IMG/VR virus record: IMGVR_UViG_3300037423_000736
Location: 1 to 42,015 of that record
Source: a virus
Taxonomy: Duplodnaviria > Caudoviricetes
Reading direction: 5' to 3' (one strand)
Length of the DNA: 42,015 nt
A model generated the notes under the pieces. It saw only the letters and a program-made list of their open reading frames with translations, had not been told where the DNA came from and did not search any database. The first letter of the stretch is position 1, and every line of letters starts with the position of its first letter. This document shows positions 3,166 to 22,822 of this stretch, piece after piece. Position numbers and translations under genes: made by a program.

Positions 3166-3846
3166 TTAGGCCGCTCCCCCGAAGTCGAGAACGTCCTGGC
3201 AGAGACGCTTGGCGATGACTTCGCAGTAGCGTTCGTCGATCTCGACGCCGATCGCCTTACGGCCGAGCTGCTTAGCGGCCATGAGGGTAGACCCGCTGCC
3301 AGCGAACGGGTCTGCGATGGTGCCCGGGGGACACGCTGCGATTAGCGCCTCCATCACGTCGAGAGGCTTGGCGTGCGGATGCCCCGCCTTCGTGGTGTAC
3401 CCGCTGTAACCCGAAGCTGACGCCCACCGGGTCTTGACGACGGCGCTGCGCGTTGGGGTCTGCTCAGGCCACGCGCCAAGCAAGAAGATCGGTTCCCAAT
3501 TGGCGAGCCACGGCACGCGCTGCCCGAACAGTCCGGCCCCAACGGTCGGCTTCTCAAAAACCAGCATCCGACTCCACCCTGCTGGGTATTCCGCGCGCAG
3601 CGAGCCAAACACGAGTGCCGGCCGATCGCCCCAAGTGGCGAGGACTGCATTCCGAGCGGAGGTGTCCGAGTCCCCCTCGATCCCACTAGTGCCGCTCTTC
3701 GCGACCGACTTAGCCCACGCTCCCTTAGACCAGCCGATGCCATAGGGGGGGTCGGTGACGAGGACGTCTGCGTCGAGCCATTCGGCTACCTCGCGACAGT
3801 CACCGTGGTAGAGGGTGACCGTGTCGTCGGCGTAGTAGGGGGTCAC
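3166..3846 (-). CDS. DNA N4-cytosine/N6-adenine methyltransferase (beta class)
   Basis: TDPPY catalytic motif, HPHAKP, DPFAGSG SAM-binding motif; start VTPYY after GGAGG. Confidence 0.92.
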   Translation of the reverse strand: MTPYYADDTVTLYHGDCREVAEWLDADVLVTDPPYGIGWSKGAWAKSVAKSGTSGIEGDSDTSARNAVLATWGDRPALVFGSLRAEYPAGWSRMLVFEKPTVGAGLFGQRVPWLANWEPIFLLGAWPEQTPTRSAVVKTRWASASGYSGYTTKAGHPHAKPLDVMEALIAACPPGTIADPFAGSGSTLMAAKQLGRKAIGVEIDERYCEVIAKRLCQDVLDFGGAA

Positions 3847-3998
3847 GAGAGCAGTCCTCCCCACGGCGCCGAGCACACGCCAGCAACGAACAGGAAGCAG
3901 GCGAACAGACCAAGGATGACGCGGCCGGGTTGGTTGTCCGCCCGTTCAGCGAGGAGGACTGCCGCAATGGACAACGCTGCCCAGACGAGCGCGTTCAT
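3843..3998 (-). CDS. 51-aa membrane protein
   Basis: MNALVWAALSIAAVLLAE...ILGLFACFLFVAGV; 4-bp overlaps on both sides. Confidence 0.6.
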   Translation of the reverse strand: MNALVWAALSIAAVLLAERADNQPGRVILGLFACFLFVAGVCSAPWGGLLS

Positions 3999-11540: not shown

Positions 11541-11704
11541 GCGGCGGGCTCCTCGTGCGGCGCGAACGGACAGACCTTGAGCTCGGACAGGCGGTTGTCA
11601 CGCAAACGGCAGCCACAAACGGGGCAGTAGTCGGACTCGTCGCCCGGCAACAACGGGTTCACGCGGTGCAGTGCGGCGTCGAGGGACGTGTGAAAGTCGC
11701 TCAT
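11537..11704 (-). CDS. Small zinc-finger protein
   Basis: CPVC...CPFAPH; GGAGG RBS. Confidence 0.6.
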   Translation of the reverse strand: MSDFHTSLDAALHRVNPLLPGDESDYCPVCGCRLRDNRLSELKVCPFAPHEEPAA

Positions 11705-12525
11705 GCGGCCACCTCCGTCGTCTGGATGTGGTCGAGAAGTTGGGTGCCGATCCACTCGGCGAAGATCGGGGGCACGGCCTGAGCCATGCCACGCTTCGTC
11801 ATCCAGTCGATGCCGAGCAGCCGCTGCTGCACCTCAAGCGACTTAGGGACGTAACCGCCCTTGCGGTCGAACTTGCAGGCGGCACGATGCTCCGCCGCGG
11901 TCTGTCCCGGCTTGCGTCCCCGGCCACCGCCGTACACCCCAGCCACCCAAACGTTCGGGTCGTGGTTGCACGGGCCAGGCGGGTAGAGAGCAGTGTTGGA
12001 CTCGAACAGGCGGTGACGTTCGAGCCGCAGCGGCAGCCCGTCCTCGTCGTTGGTGCCCAGCCCGAACATCGACCCGCAAAGCATCATCGGGTTGCGGAGC
12101 GCGGCACCCTTGACGTTCTCCAGAACCCAGGGGAGGCCGGTCTGCTGCAACAGCCAGCGGGTCGGCTCGATGAGCGCGACGTACTGCTTGCCGTCGACGC
12201 GGAGTGCCCTGGTGCCGGCTGATGCGTGCTGGCAGGGGCATGAGGCGTGGGCGGCTTCGAAGTCGGCGAGGGCGAGCCATTCGACTGTGCCGTCTTTGTG
12301 GGTGAAGGGCAGTTTCTCGCCTGCCAGGAGCATGGTGAGCGCGAGGATGGCGTCGCCCTTGTATGACGGGCCGGGGTAGCGCTTCTGGGAGAAGCCTGCG
12401 CGTTTGCCGTTGCTGTCGTAGTACTCGAACAGGTCGACGCAGTAGACGTCCCAGCCGGCGTCGGTGTAGCCCTTGTGGCAGCCACCTTCGCAGCCGTAGA
12501 GCTCGAGGAGCTTGGGGCGGCTCAT
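11701..12525 (-). CDS. DNA cytosine-5 methyltransferase (phage type)
   Basis: LELYGCEGG (variant motif I), SCPCQ (PC catalytic), LENV, RHRLF, QAVPP. Confidence 0.85.
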   Translation of the reverse strand: MSRPKLLELYGCEGGCHKGYTDAGWDVYCVDLFEYYDSNGKRAGFSQKRYPGPSYKGDAILALTMLLAGEKLPFTHKDGTVEWLALADFEAAHASCPCQHASAGTRALRVDGKQYVALIEPTRWLLQQTGLPWVLENVKGAALRNPMMLCGSMFGLGTNDEDGLPLRLERHRLFESNTALYPPGPCNHDPNVWVAGVYGGGRGRKPGQTAAEHRAACKFDRKGGYVPKSLEVQQRLLGIDWMTKRGMAQAVPPIFAEWIGTQLLDHIQTTEVAA

Positions 12526-12794
12526 GCGGCACCGTCCTGGACTATGCGGAGTGCGTGGTTCAGTCCACGGCGAAACATCGCGCCGTTGCCCTTGGCGGCG
12601 TGGCCGTAACTGCATTCGGTGGAGATGGCTTCGACAATCCGTTGGCGCTCCACCGCGATCTCCTGGTCGATGACGGGCAGCAGGGCGTCGACGTACTGCT
12701 CGACGGTCGGATCTGCCTCAACGGCTTCCAGTGCTTGCACGGCTGCTATTGCCCGCTCCCGCAGGTCGCTGGCCTGGGGCGTGCCCCCGCTCAT
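12522..12794 (-). CDS. Hypothetical protein
   Basis: ATGA overlaps on both sides. Confidence 0.65.
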   Translation of the reverse strand: MSGGTPQASDLRERAIAAVQALEAVEADPTVEQYVDALLPVIDQEIAVERQRIVEAISTECSYGHAAKGNGAMFRRGLNHALRIVQDGAA

Positions 12795-14193: not shown

Positions 14194-14412
14194 TCAGGAG
14201 GCGTCGGCCTGGGGGCGTTCGGTGGGAAGGTTCTCTGCGTACTCGCGGAGGGACTTCACGGAGACGAGGCGGCGGCTGCCCTTGTAGCGGGAGTCGATCG
14301 GTCGGGCCTCGTCGTCGAGGAGCTGGTATGCAGCCCAGAGGGAGATGCCGAGGGCTTTCGCGGCCTCTTTGACGGAGATGAAGATCGGCTCGATGCCGTC
14401 GCTGTCACTCAT
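14194..14412 (-). CDS. xis: Excisionase/Cro-like HTH protein
   Basis: ISVKEAAKALGIS...GSRRLVSVKSLREY; first gene of the early operon, divergent from the repressor. Confidence 0.75.
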   Translation of the reverse strand: MSDSDGIEPIFISVKEAAKALGISLWAAYQLLDDEARPIDSRYKGSRRLVSVKSLREYAENLPTERPQADAS

Positions 14413-14595
14413 GGAAGGGTTCGCCCCGTTCTGTCGAGTACTGCCGGGTGTTGTACCGAAACATACCCGAAGGTTCCGACAGAAACCCGCAACACTCCGC
14501 AGATTCCTCATGGATTTTACGTAGAGAGACGTATTTACCTGGCCACCCCCGCCTCCTCGTGGTCACATAGGCGGGGACACAAGGGGTGGGATGAC

Positions 14596-14997
14596 ATGTT
14601 GGAAGTTGCTGATGCGGCAAGATTCGACGGTGTGACCGAAACACGAGGGGACCTACTACGACAGCGGCGGCTGAGACATGGCATGTCTGTGTCCCAGTTG
14701 CATCGCGCATCGAGGATGTCTAGGGATGCGATCGACGCGGCCGAGGCGGGGAAGGCGTCTGATCTGACGTATTCGAAGCTTGAGAAGTGGTTCGACGACT
14801 TCGAGGAGGAGACGGGGGCGGACGAGGAGGGGATGGTCGCGGAGGGGCCGGCGTCGCCAGTTCCGTCGCCGACTGTGGTGATCCGTCTGGGGAATGGGGC
14901 GGTGGTTGTTGAGGGGCCTGTCGAGAACTTGGAGGCTCTGATTGAGGCGGCGGAGCGTCTTCGGCGGAGTTCCGCTAGTCCGGATGATGGACTTTAG
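14596..14997 (+). CDS. Immunity repressor (XRE-type HTH)
   Basis: LLRQRRLRHGMSVSQL...AIDAAEAG; divergent from xis; true start may be GTG 14632. Confidence 0.75.
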   Translation: MLEVADAARFDGVTETRGDLLRQRRLRHGMSVSQLHRASRMSRDAIDAAEAGKASDLTYSKLEKWFDDFEEETGADEEGMVAEGPASPVPSPTVVIRLGNGAVVVEGPVENLEALIEAAERLRRSSASPDDGL

Positions 14998-15425: not shown

Positions 15426-16712
15426 CTAAAGCAGCTCGGCCACCGCGGCCCCGTAGGTTTCCATTGCGGCTCTCGCGGTGCCCATGTCGAGGTGTGCGTA
15501 GCGTCTTTGTGTGGCGGATTCGTTGTGGCCCATGATGGCCATGCGGACGTCTTCCGGAACGCCGAGGGCCATCAACAACGAGGCTGCGGTGTGGCGTGCG
15601 ACGTGGAGCTTCATGTGGACGAGCTCGAGGGTTTCGAGCATGTCGCGCCATTCGGCCCAGTCGACGCGTCCATCGATCGGGCGGCCGTCTTCGCGTGCCC
15701 AGACGAGTCCGTGGTCGGTGGTGTAGTTGCGGCGTTCTTGTTCGTAGAGGGCGCGGCGTTCCTTGAGCGCGATGAGGAGTGGGCCGGGTAGCGGGATGAC
15801 GCGGGTGCTGCCCTTCGTCTTCGGCCGCTGTAGGCAGAGGTTCCCGTCGAGCTGTCGGTATTCGAAGCCGGGTTGGACGTCGAGTTCCTTCTCAGTGCAG
15901 CGGTCGCCGCGTTTCCGTCCGCAGGGCCACTCCCCCGCGGTGGGTTTGTCGGCGCATCCGTGTCGGTAGGGGATGCGCTGGAGTTGCCAGGCGAGGTCGG
16001 CGATGCCGTTGGTGAGGTCGAGGTGTTGCCAGGTGAGTCCTAGGCACTCCCCTTGTCTGGCTCCGGTGAAGAGGCCGAATGCCCAGCGGGATTGGAGGCG
16101 GTGGCCGTCGAGGTGTCGCATCAACGCGGCGAACTGGTTGAGGGTGAGTGCGTCTTGTGGGACGGCGGCCTTGGGTGGCGCAGGGACGAGGGTGACCACG
16201 TTGCGGGTGACTTTCCCGTCGCGCATGGCGTCGTTCAACGCGGTGCCGAGGATCCGGTGGGCGTGGTGTGCCGTGGTCGGGGACAGAGGTACGTCCTTGC
16301 CCTTGACCTGCCGGGTTTGGGTGAGGATGTGGCGGTGGAGGGCGCGGACGTCGGCGGCGGTGAGCTTGTCGAGGCGCTTGGCTCCGAGCGCGGGGATGAT
16401 GTACCGCTCCACATAGGACCGGTACGTGCGCAGCGTCTTCGGCTTCATCCGCGGCTTGCCGGGGCAGACCTGCTCGAGCCAGTACGTCAGCCATGAGGTG
16501 AGGGTGGTGCCGGCGGTGTTGGTGTCGCCTGCGTCGATCGCCTTCCTGGCGGCCCGCAACTTCTGGACGACTTCCTTCTGGGTTTTCGCGGTGACTTGTT
16601 TCCGGCGGCGTTTCCCGTCCACCACCCCCAAGTCGATACGGGCCACCCATAGGCCGTCCTCGGCGCGCTGGTAGACGGAACCTTCGCCGCGTTGGCGGCG
16701 CTTCGGGCTCAC
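15426..16712 (-). CDS. int: Tyrosine integrase
   Basis: GARQGE (R), PKTK (K), LHVARH (HxxR), MGH, RRY catalytic residues; N-terminal arm domain; GTG start after GAGGAG. Confidence 0.96.
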   Translation of the reverse strand: MSPKRRQRGEGSVYQRAEDGLWVARIDLGVVDGKRRRKQVTAKTQKEVVQKLRAARKAIDAGDTNTAGTTLTSWLTYWLEQVCPGKPRMKPKTLRTYRSYVERYIIPALGAKRLDKLTAADVRALHRHILTQTRQVKGKDVPLSPTTAHHAHRILGTALNDAMRDGKVTRNVVTLVPAPPKAAVPQDALTLNQFAALMRHLDGHRLQSRWAFGLFTGARQGECLGLTWQHLDLTNGIADLAWQLQRIPYRHGCADKPTAGEWPCGRKRGDRCTEKELDVQPGFEYRQLDGNLCLQRPKTKGSTRVIPLPGPLLIALKERRALYEQERRNYTTDHGLVWAREDGRPIDGRVDWAEWRDMLETLELVHMKLHVARHTAASLLMALGVPEDVRMAIMGHNESATQRRYAHLDMGTARAAMETYGAAVAELL

Positions 16713-16734: not shown

Positions 16735-17232
16735 TCATGCGATTCCCTCCCAAGATCGGCGGCCGATGTAGGCCAGGTACTCGTCACCCGTCAGGGTCGC
16801 CTTGTCGCGGTTGCAGCGGCGACACGTCGCGACGAGGTTGTCGAGTCCGTCCGAGCCGCCACGGCTCACGGGGATGTAGTGGTCCTTCTCGACCTGCATG
16901 ATGTGGACGGGCTCCTCGCAGTAGTAACAGGCGACGCGGTACGGCGCGACCAGCGGCAGCGCGGCCACCTTCGCGCGCCACTCCTTGTGGGTGTGGGTTC
17001 CGAGTTCGCGAGCGTTCCGTAAGTGGACGTCACGGGTGCTGAGGTTGAGCTCGCGAGGCGGGTGCTCGGCATGCCACGCGTCGAGTTTCGCCGACACAGC
17101 GGCTTCGGTCTTCCCGTAGAAGACCTTCCGCTTGCGTGGCTCTCCGCGCTCCGATGGCAGCGGGACCCGCGCCACCCATAGACCGTCCGAAGACCGTTGG
17201 TGAACCGTCCCCGTTCCTTTTGTTCGCCGCAC
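16735..17232 (-). CDS. Integrase arm-binding-like domain fused to HNH endonuclease
   Basis: N-terminal 50 aa align with the integrase N-terminus; C-terminal CYYC...DHYIPVSRGG...NLVATCRRCN. Confidence 0.85.
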   Translation of the reverse strand: MRRTKGTGTVHQRSSDGLWVARVPLPSERGEPRKRKVFYGKTEAAVSAKLDAWHAEHPPRELNLSTRDVHLRNARELGTHTHKEWRAKVAALPLVAPYRVACYYCEEPVHIMQVEKDHYIPVSRGGSDGLDNLVATCRRCNRDKATLTGDEYLAYIGRRSWEGIA

Positions 17233-17257
17233 CCGCGATCCCCCTTCGTGTGACTTA

Positions 17258-17491
17258 ACTGTGTCCTACGGGAGCGTATCGCACGCTACTGTGAGACCCG
17301 GTAAAAGCGGCCTGACCTGCGGTGTTGCGCTCAGACCCTCTAGTGTGTATCGTAGCACACACGGTTTCCTAAACCGTGCGTCGCAGGTTCGAATCCTGCC
17401 GGGGGCACCACCTCAAAATGGCGTCTGACCTGCGGCGATAGCCACACAGTAGCGAGGCTGGTCCTTCGGGACTGTGTCCAACACTGTGTCC
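17258..17491 (+). repeat. Putative integrase arm-type and accessory sites flanking attP
   Basis: ACTGTGTCC at 17258, 17471 and 17483; CTGACCTGCGG at 17312 and 17425. Confidence 0.7.
17361..17410 (+). other. attP: attP common core: 3' portion of tRNA-Arg(CCT)
   Basis: ACGGT-TTCCTAA-ACCGT anticodon arm, GCAGG-TTCGAAT-CCTGC T arm, CGGGGGCACCA end; no matching 5' acceptor half; next to the int locus. Confidence 0.9.
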
Positions 17492-17664: not shown

Positions 17665-18014
17665 CCGACACGACCGCGCCCCAGCTCGCCACCCGCGACA
17701 CGCTCCGGGCGGTGTTGGCTGACCACTTCGTCATGTGGCACGACTTTGAGGACCCGACCCCCATTCGAGGCGAGTGGCGGTGTGCTTGCGGTCTCAAGTT
17801 CGGATTCTCGGACTCCGCGATTGACCACCAGGCCGACGCCTTGGCTGGTGTGGTGCGTGACCCGTCCACCCTCGCCAGGGTGTTCCGTACTGCTGCCGAG
17901 TTGGTCGTGCAGGACGTGCGGACGCAACGGGGCGACCACATCGCCAGCCTCGTAGAGGACTCGTTCGCTGCGCACTTCGACCGCGCTGGCGCACTCACCG
18001 AGGAGTCCCGATGA
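17661..18014 (+). CDS. Hypothetical protein
   Basis: H...CAC...HQAD possible zinc site; operon packing. Confidence 0.7.
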   Translation: MTDTTAPQLATRDTLRAVLADHFVMWHDFEDPTPIRGEWRCACGLKFGFSDSAIDHQADALAGVVRDPSTLARVFRTAAELVVQDVRTQRGDHIASLVEDSFAAHFDRAGALTEESR

Positions 18015-18136
18015 CCGAAGAGGCGTGGCTACCCGCGGATTCGCGGGGCTGGTCTCGCGGATTCGCGGGACTGGTTACCTCGCGATCGAACTATTCCGAG
18101 GTCTTCGCGCCCTACCGCGAAGAGTGGAAGCCATGA
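18011..18136 (+). CDS. 41-aa ORF ending YREEWKP (possible remnant)
   Basis: GAGGAG RBS, ATGA overlaps; same C-terminus as the DUF6221-like gene. Confidence 0.45.
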   Translation: MTEEAWLPADSRGWSRGFAGLVTSRSNYSEVFAPYREEWKP

Positions 18137-18267
18137 GCCGCCGCTGGTGTGGTCTGCACGGTACAGCCGACTGCGCCTGCACCTACCACTGCACCGGATG
18201 CGCACACGCCTACGGGCCACCCAAGCCCGACTGCTGTACCTGCTGCGAGAGGAGCGACCCGTCGTGA
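18133..18267 (+). CDS. 44-aa Cys/His-rich microprotein
   Basis: MSRRWCGLHGTADCACTYHCTGCAHAYGPPKPDCCTCCERSDPS; 4-bp overlaps on both sides. Confidence 0.55.
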   Translation: MSRRWCGLHGTADCACTYHCTGCAHAYGPPKPDCCTCCERSDPS

Positions 18268-18566
18268 CGCTGACTGAGTTCCTGCTGGCCCGCATCGCCG
18301 AGGATGAGGTGGCGGCGCGCGAACCGCAGTGGCTGGCCCTTGAGTACGGGGTGGACAGCGCAGGGCGTGCCGCCTTCTCAAGCCGTGTGCTGGCCGAGTG
18401 TGAGGCGAAGCGGCGAATTGTGGAGGAGTTGTCGCCCGCCGTCGACTATGACAGGGACCGCTTTATCGTTCAGTCGACGCTAGAGGCCGCGGCTACGGCA
18501 TCGCTCCGCTTCCTCGCTCTGCCTTACGCCGACCACCCGGACTACCGCGAAGAGTGGAAGCCATGA
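18264..18566 (+). CDS. DUF6221-like protein
   Basis: TLTEFLLARIAEDE, RVLAECEAKRRIV, LALPYADHPDYREEW. Confidence 0.85.
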   Translation: MTLTEFLLARIAEDEVAAREPQWLALEYGVDSAGRAAFSSRVLAECEAKRRIVEELSPAVDYDRDRFIVQSTLEAAATASLRFLALPYADHPDYREEWKP

Positions 18567-19286: not shown

Positions 19287-20615
19287 TCAGGCGACGACGC
19301 GGTAGGTGACTGATAGCCAGCGGTGGTCGGAGTGTTCGCCGCTGATGATGTGTTGGCTGGCGATACGCAAGTCAGCGTCGTCGTGGGCGAGGTAGTCGAT
19401 GCGTCGGGAGCCGAGGGAGCCGCCTGTGGGGGCAGATGGCGTGATCCAGTTGGAGCGCATCCCGAGGCGCGCGAACATGGCCCGCGGCGCCCACGTCCAC
19501 ACCTTGCCGACCTTCCAGTGCCAGTTGAAGTCGCCTGCGATGGTGACCCGGTAGCCCTGTGCGCGGAGTTCTTTGACGAGTGCGGTCAGCCGCCGCATGT
19601 GGATGATGTCCTGCGCGACCCGCGGGAGGTTGCGGGGTTTCCCGGCGTCTTCGATGTGGGCGTTGGTGTGGGTTTGGATGTGTGCCCATTTGTGGCCGGC
19701 GTGTTGGTAGAGGGCCCAGGTGGCGGTGCGTTCCGGCGAGGTGCCGACCTTGTCGCACATCTTCCGCCAGCCTTCGCCGAGCCAGGTGATGTCGTGGCGG
19801 AGGAGGATGACGTTGTTGAGTGCGGCCCCAGTACCGGGTGCTATGACGCGGTAGTTCTTCAACGTCTTCAGCAGGTCGCGGAATCGGTAGGCTTCGTTGA
19901 GTCCGAAGACGTGGGCGGTCTGCTTGTCGAGCAGCGCGACGTCCGCACCCTTTTGGGTGTTGTCTTTGAACAGGTTCCCGTGGGCGATGGTCAGCTCACC
20001 CACGACCCGGATCCGCTTGGCCTTCTTGACGACCTTCGCGGGCGCTGGCTTCGGTGCGGACTTGGCTGCGAGTACGGCGGCAATGTCGGCGCGGAACTTG
20101 TTCATGTCCAGCATGCCGGGATCCCACTTGCCGGTGACCGAGGTCTCCTTGTGGGCCCGCTGCGCCCGGACGCTGGTGCCGAGCATCCGCGCCAGGACCG
20201 CACCGGTCTTCACCATCGCGTCGTACTGGGGCTTCGACCAGCCTTCGGTGCCGGAGTTCATGCATTCCACGCCGATGTAGAGCGCGTTGCCGTCACCAGC
20301 GGCGACGGTCCCGGACGACTTGGCCTTGCCTGCGTGGTTGGCGCGGCCGGCAGCGAGGACGTAGACGGTGCCGTCGCGGTCGATCGACAACTGGCACAGC
20401 GGGGCGGGCAGGTCCGAGCGTCCCTCGCGGGCCATCCACTGCGCGCCACGGAGGCCGAAGACGCCGGGGCCGGTGTGGTGCCAGAGCACGCCGACCGGGG
20501 TGAAGTTGCCTGTCGACGACGGGCGTCCGCGGGTCTTCCAACCGTCGAGGGCGATGACGTGGAGACCGCCGGCTGTGAGAGCTTGCGCAAGGTTGGTTTG
20601 AAAGCGGTACGCCAT
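19287..20615 (-). CDS. Endolysin: N-acetylmuramoyl-L-alanine amidase fused to an EEP-family domain
   Basis: WHHT, GRANHAG, IGVE, HKE and KWDP amidase_2 motifs; C-terminal LNE, GDFN, RIDY, SDH motifs; start MAYRF after GAGGAG. Confidence 0.88.
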   Translation of the reverse strand: MAYRFQTNLAQALTAGGLHVIALDGWKTRGRPSSTGNFTPVGVLWHHTGPGVFGLRGAQWMAREGRSDLPAPLCQLSIDRDGTVYVLAAGRANHAGKAKSSGTVAAGDGNALYIGVECMNSGTEGWSKPQYDAMVKTGAVLARMLGTSVRAQRAHKETSVTGKWDPGMLDMNKFRADIAAVLAAKSAPKPAPAKVVKKAKRIRVVGELTIAHGNLFKDNTQKGADVALLDKQTAHVFGLNEAYRFRDLLKTLKNYRVIAPGTGAALNNVILLRHDITWLGEGWRKMCDKVGTSPERTATWALYQHAGHKWAHIQTHTNAHIEDAGKPRNLPRVAQDIIHMRRLTALVKELRAQGYRVTIAGDFNWHWKVGKVWTWAPRAMFARLGMRSNWITPSAPTGGSLGSRRIDYLAHDDADLRIASQHIISGEHSDHRWLSVTYRVVA

Positions 20616-20620
20616 GACGG

Positions 20621-20800
20621 CTACTCCTCGTGGGTGCGGTTGGCGCGGTAGATCCACTCAGCGACCCGGCGCCAGGTTCGTGCGCGGCGTTGTGTGGCTG
20701 CGAGTTCTTCGCGGAGGCTCGCGTTGGCGGCGCGTTCTTGCGCCAACTCGAGCGCGAGACGGTCGATCGTCGCTTGCAGCCGGTCCTCCCGAGAGGTCAC
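20621..20800 (-). CDS. 59-aa coiled-coil protein
   Basis: MTSREDRLQATIDRLALELAQE...; fills the gap before the endolysin. Confidence 0.55.
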   Translation of the reverse strand: MTSREDRLQATIDRLALELAQERAANASLREELAATQRRARTWRRVAEWIYRANRTHEE

Positions 20801-21190: not shown

Positions 21191-21548
21191 CTGTGCCTCC
21201 TTGGAGACGCCTGAGTGCGTCGATGATCTGTTGCCCTTGCTCAGTTGAGGCGCGCCAGTAGCCCTTGGCCTCTTCGTGGTGGTGCTCGAGTCGTTCACCG
21301 AACGCAGCGATTTGGACCTCGTTGGAGACGACGCGGCCGAGGGCTTCAAGGTCGGACTTGAGTCTCTTGGTTTCGGCGGCGCATTCGTCGCGTTCTTTTT
21401 CGAGGTCGCCGGCCCGGTCGCGGAGGTCTTTGTTGGCTTCGCGGAGGTTGGTGACGACGCCGCGTTGGAGGCCGGCGAGTGCTACACCGATGATGGTGGT
21501 GATTGCGAGGACTGTTTGGAGGACGCCCGAGAAGTCCACGCTGTTCAC
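21183..21548 (-). CDS. Membrane protein with coiled coil in lysis cassette
   Basis: N-terminal TM segment then heptad region. Confidence 0.75.
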   Translation of the reverse strand: MNSVDFSGVLQTVLAITTIIGVALAGLQRGVVTNLREANKDLRDRAGDLEKERDECAAETKRLKSDLEALGRVVSNEVQIAAFGERLEHHHEEAKGYWRASTEQGQQIIDALRRLQGGTGG

Positions 21549-21718
21549 CTCTCTCCGCGCGGTGGCGATTGCGCGGAGGCCCTGCGCGTTTTCGTGGTGT
21601 GTGGCATGTTCCCCCGCGGCTCCCTCGCGTTGGACCCGCTGACGTATCAGGGAGGGTCGTGGTGTCTCATTACTTTCAGCGCTGCGGGGCCGGGTCGAGT
21701 CCGGTCAAGCAGCGTCAG

Positions 21719-21750
21719 GCGCGGTCCCGCTCCCAAAGTTGGGACCGCGC
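21719..21750. terminator. Hairpin between the acyltransferase promoter and the lysis cassette
   Basis: GCGCGGTCCC...GGGACCGCGC 10-bp inverted repeat. Confidence 0.5.
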
Positions 21751-21775
21751 CGCCTCTTTGCCCTACTGTGTTCGG

Positions 21776-22822
21776 GTGACATCCACGGGGGACTGGCGAC
21801 TCGGGCATCGGCCAGCACTAGACGGAGTTCGCGGCATCGCTGTCGCACTGGTCGTCCTCGGCCACGCTGGAGTCCCACTGCTGGTCAATGCTGGTGCCGT
21901 AGGGGTCGACACGTTCTTCACCCTGTCGGGGTTCCTCATCACCAGCCTGCTGCTCGAGGAGCGTTCCACCCACGGCAGCGTCCGGTTCGGTGCGTTCTAC
22001 CGGCGGCGAGCTCTGCGGTTGCTGCCAGCGCTCGTTGCGCTAGTCGCTGGCGTCTGGGTGATTCGGGTCGCCCTTGGCCTTGGGTCCAACTTCGTCAGCG
22101 TGCCCGGCACGGCCGCGGCGTTGCTGTACTACACGAACCTGTGGATCTTCCACGGCTCTAGCGGTGTCCTGTCCCACACCTGGTCCCTGTCCCTTGAGGA
22201 GCAGTTCTACTTAACCTGGCCGTTGCTCCTCGTGGTGCTCTACAGGTGGGGGCGCCATCGGGCGGTGCTCTGGGGTGCGCTGGTTCTCGGGTCGGCGTCG
22301 GTGGCGTCGTTCTACTTGTCCACGGGAGACCTGCGCAGCTTCGCCCCCGACACCCGTTCCTTTCACCTCTTGTTCGGTTGCGCCCTAGCCGCGGCCCTGA
22401 CTGGTGCCGCCCGCATGCCGGTCCCATCGCGGCTGCTCGCCGTTCCCGCCGCCTTATTGCTGCTGCTGGCGTCTCTCGCGAATGGAGGCGTCGCCGCAGA
22501 GGTCGCGCCGGTAGCGATTGTTGGTGGCGGCGTAGTTCTCATCTGGGTGGCCGGGACGCGCGACCTCCCAGCGCTGGAAGGCCGAGCTTTGACGTGGCTA
22601 GGACGCCGCTCGTATGCCATCTATCTGTGGCACTTCCCGGCGATCGGTGCCGCTCTGAGAGTTGGTGGAGGGTGGCCCGTTCACTTGGTAGTGATCGGCG
22701 GCTTCGGGGTGACGATGGCGGTCCTGTCGTGGCGGTTCATCGAGCGGCCATTCCTCAACATGAAGCAGACACCCCAGAATCGTGCAGTCCCGCAAGCCAT
22801 TACGCCTAGGGCATCTGTGTGA
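21776..22822 (+). CDS. Acyltransferase-3 (OafA/YrhL-like) membrane O-acyltransferase
   Basis: LDGVRGIAV, GVDTFFTLSGFLIT, FYRRRALRLLP, HTWSLSLEEQFY, SYAIYLWH, FIERP; GTG start 6 nt after TACTGT. Confidence 0.93.
   Translation: MTSTGDWRLGHRPALDGVRGIAVALVVLGHAGVPLLVNAGAVGVDTFFTLSGFLITSLLLEERSTHGSVRFGAFYRRRALRLLPALVALVAGVWVIRVALGLGSNFVSVPGTAAALLYYTNLWIFHGSSGVLSHTWSLSLEEQFYLTWPLLLVVLYRWGRHRAVLWGALVLGSASVASFYLSTGDLRSFAPDTRSFHLLFGCALAAALTGAARMPVPSRLLAVPAALLLLLASLANGGVAAEVAPVAIVGGGVVLIWVAGTRDLPALEGRALTWLGRRSYAIYLWHFPAIGAALRVGGGWPVHLVVIGGFGVTMAVLSWRFIERPFLNMKQTPQNRAVPQAITPRASV

Follow-up and report, generated by a model that had tools for sequence, protein, structure and literature searches.

Between the attachment site (attP) and the tyrosine integrase gene (int) of a 42-kb virus record (the window, i.e., the whole stretch of DNA analysed here) lies a gene (16735..17232, minus strand) whose 165-aa product joins an integrase-type arm domain to an HNH nuclease domain. 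This arm-HNH gene is real, conserved, position-specific and apparently undescribed, and it appears to be an optional occupant of that slot. Domain layout, conservation, slot and optional presence make homing the best-supported form of an att-linked nuclease role; on balance, we lean towards a free-standing homing nuclease that would dock on arm-type repeats and cut attP-int junctions devoid of the nuclease.

The arm-HNH gene, its domains and its family

The arm-HNH ORF opens with a GTG codon and has a ribosome-binding site; the most likely start of int is the GTG at 16712, 22 nt past the arm-HNH stop codon, the spacing given by an earlier reading of this DNA from its letters only (the sequence-only reading). 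A frame-shifted or split integrase was ruled out, as both ORFs are intact and each has its own ribosome-binding site. No promoter or terminator consensus was found.

The N-terminal domain (residues 1-56; 17065..17232, minus strand) is of the integrase-arm, AP2-like type: residues 2-52 share 25 of 51 positions (49%, E 2e-10) with the N-terminus of the adjacent integrase, which bears out the parallel drawn in the sequence-only reading, and the Pfam AP2 profile scores below threshold on it (E 0.085, 13.6 bits vs. a cut-off of 33.3). A conserved helical linker follows (16957..17043, minus strand), in which R67, A74, H80 and W85 are invariant or nearly so, and then a Zn-HNH nuclease domain (16801..16929, minus strand) with two CxxC motifs, D117-H118, N132 and N141; the PF01844 match spans residues 102-144 (E 1.4e-12), so that the HNH domain, which had been called intact-looking, is indeed so. 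In the AlphaFold2 model of the protein (alignment of 84 rows, mean pLDDT 92.5), strands at residues 9-12, 19-25 and 34-40 form a three-stranded sheet followed by a helix at 43-56, in support of the arm-type domain proposed in the sequence-only reading. The arm domain alone retrieved no Foldseek match at E ≤ 0.001; VIA-align placed it on an AP2 domain with a Z of 4.7 and an rmsd of 2.6 over 55 aligned residues, a score tied by unrelated rows. The solved structure nearest to the nuclease half is the Gme HNH nicking endonuclease (PDB 4H9D), in which no arm domain was matched; by analogy, it hints that arm-HNH may nick.

Of the 238 stored proteins from two profile searches with overlapping lists, 163 have the arm before the HNH; a match with the reversed order and another with the arm only were set aside. 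E ≤ 1e-30 was reached by 73 clusters (50% identity). The catalytic columns are invariant in the family alignment, and 146 of the 152 members with near-complete arms retain the complete catalytic motif. On contigs of relatives that cover the gene, third codon positions account for 24 of 36 variable positions (p 4e-5, best-supported 40 of 62 rows). The fusion is therefore no one-off, a possibility raised in the sequence-only reading, and these sequence patterns support selective constraint on the family. Two members (P0082 and P0083) have an extra C-terminal HTH_17, excisionase-like domain.

Members of the family are scarce in curated collections. Besides the window, IMG/VR holds a single member, a homologue on the record L338, and the other viral scans returned no fusion apart from that one. 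Among GenBank phages and plasmids, no place covered 80% of the arm-HNH query; no fusion came from the GTDB scan, whose motif fits 63 of 152 family members, nor from 5 of the 64 parts of a metagenome scan. A scan with the integrase alone gave no match, an arm-alone search for longer proteins gave none either (weak evidence), and the ESM Atlas had only matches under 0.9. One has to consider that the scans went by motifs, and members outside the scanned motifs may be missed.

attP, arm-type repeats and the slot before int

The window holds terminase, portal, capsid, tail, lysis and recombination genes, as well as an excisionase-like HTH_17 gene (14194..14511, minus strand), a repressor-like HTH gene (14596..14997, plus strand) and the tyrosine integrase gene (15426..16712, minus strand), whose arm domain is of the fusion type. 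Most relatives of this integrase belong to actinobacterial phages, and the sequencing runs that match the window DNA are soil metagenomes. Several other features of the record were recorded along the way: an O-antigen acetylase-like gene (21503-22822, plus strand) oriented against the tail genes, likely a moron; a 456-aa endolysin (19287-20657, minus strand) with no endolysin profile match in its C-terminal half, which reads like a separate enzyme domain; two small ORFs (18011-18566, plus strand) sharing an identical nine-residue tail, with a 20-nt direct repeat at 18034 and 18056; and, at the end of the record, another HNH gene, probably the one associated with packaging, together with two DNA methyltransferase genes (52-399, 3166-3876 and 11701-12615, respectively, all on the minus strand).

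The common core of attP (17360..17413, plus strand) corresponds to the 3′ part of tRNA-Arg(CCT). ARAGORN calls a tRNA-Arg at 17334-17410; this call is the attP copy of the core, because contigs from two runs (X1 and X5) join tRNA-like, host-like 5′ halves at about position 17361, and an intact phage tRNA was rejected on the same grounds. The tRNA-Arg assignment of the sequence-only reading thus holds for the att core, with the call itself refined to a core copy. The word ACTGTGTCC occurs exactly three times in the 42 kb, always around the core (17258-17491); the gene lies next to attP, as had been proposed. We take these copies as arm-type repeats: an intact int-proximal one (17258..17266, plus strand), whose role is presumed, and a distal tandem pair, 12 nt apart (17471..17491, plus strand), with an inverted arm-like repeat bearing two mismatches between core and pair (17442..17450, minus strand). 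Reading the window against the loose end of the X5 contig and against L262, a nuclease-free locus, a putative degenerate remnant of the outermost proximal repeat can be recognised at 17247..17255 (plus strand), touching the arm-HNH ribosome-binding site. A 20-nt repeat found on both sides of the core (17303-17322 and 17416-17435) is a candidate accessory-factor site.

The L338 homologue is 43% identical to arm-HNH and lies in the same order, attP-gene-int, with the gene overlapping the int start; its core is tRNA-Thr-like and its integrase 40% identical to that of the window. Recurrence beside int and attP, one of the checks suggested by the sequence-only reading, is thus observed: the slot is occupied in both HNH-family members with readable genomic context (the window and L338), these two being all the context on which the claim stands for this family. 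Conversely, 80 related integrase loci, 58 of which include at least 400 nt of upstream sequence, all lack the arm-HNH gene, as do the whole records of four of these loci; the fusion-arm profile recovers the integrase in 79 of the 80, the one missed being truncated. Short contigs of close relatives (X2, X3 and X4) run past the stop codon into sequence unlike int and none reaches int, so the exact slot is not universal. In X3, the stop codon of the homologue abuts an 8/9 match to the arm repeat; an 8-mer common to X2 and X4 after the stop came from a mixed consensus and was set aside. The X5 contig (a single one, depth 3.3) has a window-like proximal arm with a near-intact repeat pair, followed by a different gene start. 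It is the one close candidate for an empty allele of this slot among the contigs examined, and the missing X5 coverage over arm-HNH was given no weight.

Ancestry of the fusion arm and the parallel GIY-YIG family

An 11-nt word common to int (16642) and arm-HNH (17171) had been noticed in the sequence-only reading; it lies within a 34-nt repeat of 76% identity and encodes a conserved L-W-V-A motif, and the fusion arm is no recent duplicate of the arm of this integrase. When 75 integrases were ranked against each fusion arm, the cognate integrase came only 4th for the window and 49th for L338, the best-scoring one being that of L255 in both cases; with the window integrase as reference, its adjacent fusion ranks 20 of 153. 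Fusion arms are 38-50% identical to the neighbouring integrase. In a tree of arm domains (56 columns, 162 rows, rows over 62% identity dropped), they cluster, with 8-9 label changes vs. about 35 after shuffling, albeit with weak branch support, and the window arm groups with other fusions; an AU test run with two rows omitted did not reject a single origin of the fusion arms (p 0.37). The ranks and this clustering rule out that the arm was recently duplicated from its own integrase, and the ranks do not support the suggested co-variation of the arm with its cognate integrase in this family. Since own integrases do not rank first, fusion arms cluster and one origin is not rejected, the gene looks, from its sequence relationships, like an old lineage moving among integration modules. 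On the gene strand, a G[AC][CT]ACA core is common to the arm repeats of the window, L338, L262 and the mycobacteriophage DS6A; an arm domain of relaxed specificity could therefore recognise all four.

These results bear on two alternatives. Arm-HNH might be an ordinary AP2-type homing nuclease with a target other than the arm repeats, sitting beside int because its arm-coding DNA resembles the 5′ end of int and guides recombination. The 34-nt repeat that joins int and arm-HNH, with a rare CTA codon shared between them (16/492 Leu codons; 1/17 related integrases), would suit such a scenario, as would the X2 and X4 relatives that are not followed by int and the HNH-AP2 homing genes located away from integrases (PMC10448857). 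However, arms only 38-50% identical to the adjacent integrase, their clustering and the AU result together imply that ongoing homology-driven capture is not needed, and the related gene of DS6A (see below) follows attP though int lies 1.2 kb off; we regard this scenario as decidedly unlikely.

The other alternative, also put forward in the sequence-only reading next to an att-linked nuclease, is a modulator of intasome assembly, the arm competing with the integrase for arm sites and shifting the balance of integration vs. excision, with the nuclease being secondary. Arm-HNH is co-oriented with int and adjoins arm sites, and two loci, L290 and L291, have stand-alone arm-domain ORFs upstream of int; these ORFs (L290:335-613 and L291 ~1197-1475) encode about 90 aa without a nuclease and sit 2.3-3.2 kb upstream of an integrase, L291 also having a tRNA-like att core at ~2790-2856. 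A regulator of this kind is nonetheless hard to reconcile with a gene absent from 80/80 related modules and an arm that does not match its own integrase, and a pure modulator is unlikely because the catalytic residues are kept in 146/152 members; we find this version very improbable, and of the two roles that had been proposed it is the nuclease, in its homing form, that is best supported.

A parallel family is found in mycobacteriophages. In phrog_16880, an arm domain of the arm-HNH type is fused behind a GIY-YIG domain, and members are annotated as endonuclease or hypothetical only. In all four phages having a match that covers at least 80% of phrog_16880 (8 records), the gene is next to attP or directly before int: it is directly upstream of int in ThetaBob (gp46, MK977709, L332), Yoshi (gp55, JF704115, L333) and Demsculpinboyz (gp51, MF919502, L416), and right after attP, with int 1.2 kb away, in DS6A (gp51, JN698994, L334). 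A tRNA-like core lies just upstream of the gene in the three phages checked, and shorter matches to the GIY-YIG part alone are located elsewhere in phage genomes. Like arm-HNH, phrog_16880 thus combines an arm domain, the attP/int position and optional presence (Yoshi vs. Che9d); unlike it, the nuclease is GIY-YIG and not HNH, the arm is C-terminal and it is closer to the cognate integrase (59-62% identity to own integrase arms). Two side observations belong here. The DS6A integrase (L334:6626-8212) is 528 aa long, its catalytic region being enlarged by some 100 residues. In addition, many integrases of mycobacteriophages bear the name "endonuclease" in RefSeq, a label possibly, at a guess, carried over from the arm-nuclease family via the shared domain.

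Che9d and RitSun have the Yoshi-type module without the GIY-YIG-arm gene, which gives a filled/empty pair. Yoshi is longer than Che9d by about 449 nt at the module, and the two differ at 23 of 112 positions in the proximal arm and at 21 of 100 at the int 5′ end, vs. 0-4% elsewhere. Diverged flanks around an insertion are the footprint expected of free-standing homing endonucleases, and the Yoshi/Che9d divergence is as homing would leave it; the clear footprint belongs to the GIY-YIG sister family and is only hinted at for the HNH family. The arm sites themselves may tell a similar story: both tandem arm pairs are intact in L262, which lacks the nuclease, and in the window, L338 and DS6A the outermost proximal arm site is degenerate, which would fit self-protection of the carrier, in a few loci and as a pattern seen after the fact. 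No such tandem arm pairs were found in L254 and three provirus ends (G001-G003). As the window keeps its distal repeat pair intact, binding to arm repeats would not by itself let the nuclease distinguish the carrier from other DNA.

Such arms could also serve as a weapon: the arm would aim the nuclease at the att arms of rival elements and destroy their attP or prophage ends, the gene not being copied. Both fusion arms fit integrase arms of other phages (L255, L252 and L261) better than their own, and Odn of ICP1 provides a tested precedent of a nuclease that borrows the DNA-binding domain of its target (PMC8263062). A weapon does not need to sit at the attP-int junction, yet 2/2 HNH and 4/4 GIY-YIG members are at attP or int; furthermore, the flank divergence between Yoshi and Che9d looks like co-conversion, and the GIY-YIG arms are close to those of their own integrases (59-62% identity). 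Taken as a whole, a pure weapon seems unlikely to us.

Proposed mode of action and known relatives

Under the homing reading, the arm-HNH gene would be co-transcribed with int, and the arm domain of its product, being of relaxed specificity, would dock on the tandem arm repeats beside int of a gene-free co-infecting phage or prophage junction, near which the HNH domain would nick or cut. Repair by recombination, with homology supplied by the att core at one end and by int at the other, would then copy the arm-HNH gene in and co-convert both the proximal arm and the 5′ end of int. The carrier would be spared, since arm and cut site are kept apart by the insertion and its outermost arm repeat has degenerated.

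Several known systems come close. A 2005 study by Balaji reportedly treats fusions of nucleases with AP2/integrase domains, and the arm-HNH layout may be among them. In the titles and abstract openings of open-access papers, no integrase-arm nuclease at attP was described, and supplements may list the layout. The HNH-AP2 homing endonucleases, including IPA-HNH of ICP1, likewise combine an HNH and a three-stranded AP2-like domain in a free-standing phage gene (PMC10448857). In these enzymes, the HNH is N-terminal and the AP2 C-terminal, whereas the order is reversed in arm-HNH; moreover, the binding domain of arm-HNH is of the actinobacterial integrase arm type, its nuclease is of the PF01844 Zn type and its gene lies at attP-int. 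Odn (Gp88) is a chimera too, its nuclease being joined to the DNA-binding domain of a mobile-element protein with repeated binding sites; that domain binds a replication origin and the target is a satellite origin (PMC8263062), whereas in arm-HNH it is an integrase arm and the carrier itself holds arm repeats. Finally, T4 mobE is also a free-standing HNH gene, and the conversion moving it with its flanks (PMC2790892) is the mode proposed here. As in free-standing homing endonucleases generally, the active site of arm-HNH is intact. We know of no integrase-derived domain and no att site in homing endonucleases of the mobE type.

A wider view, which we put forward tentatively and with some doubt, is that temperate phages may repeatedly have fused integrase arms to unrelated nucleases (HNH and GIY-YIG), yielding attachment-site nucleases that would cut rival attP and resident prophage ends, thereby spreading and deciding which element holds a tRNA site; they would also drive the rapid exchange of att arms and of the N-terminal parts of integrases. 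The homing idea is testable with two cultured phages, filled Yoshi and empty Che9d, which were deposited as Mycobacterium phages (Yoshi on M. smegmatis). Few parts of a temperate phage genome are exchanged as often as the integration module. If the homing reading is true, a nuclease that recognises arm repeats through a domain of the integrase itself would drive such exchange directly, and might also be a tool of competition for attachment sites.
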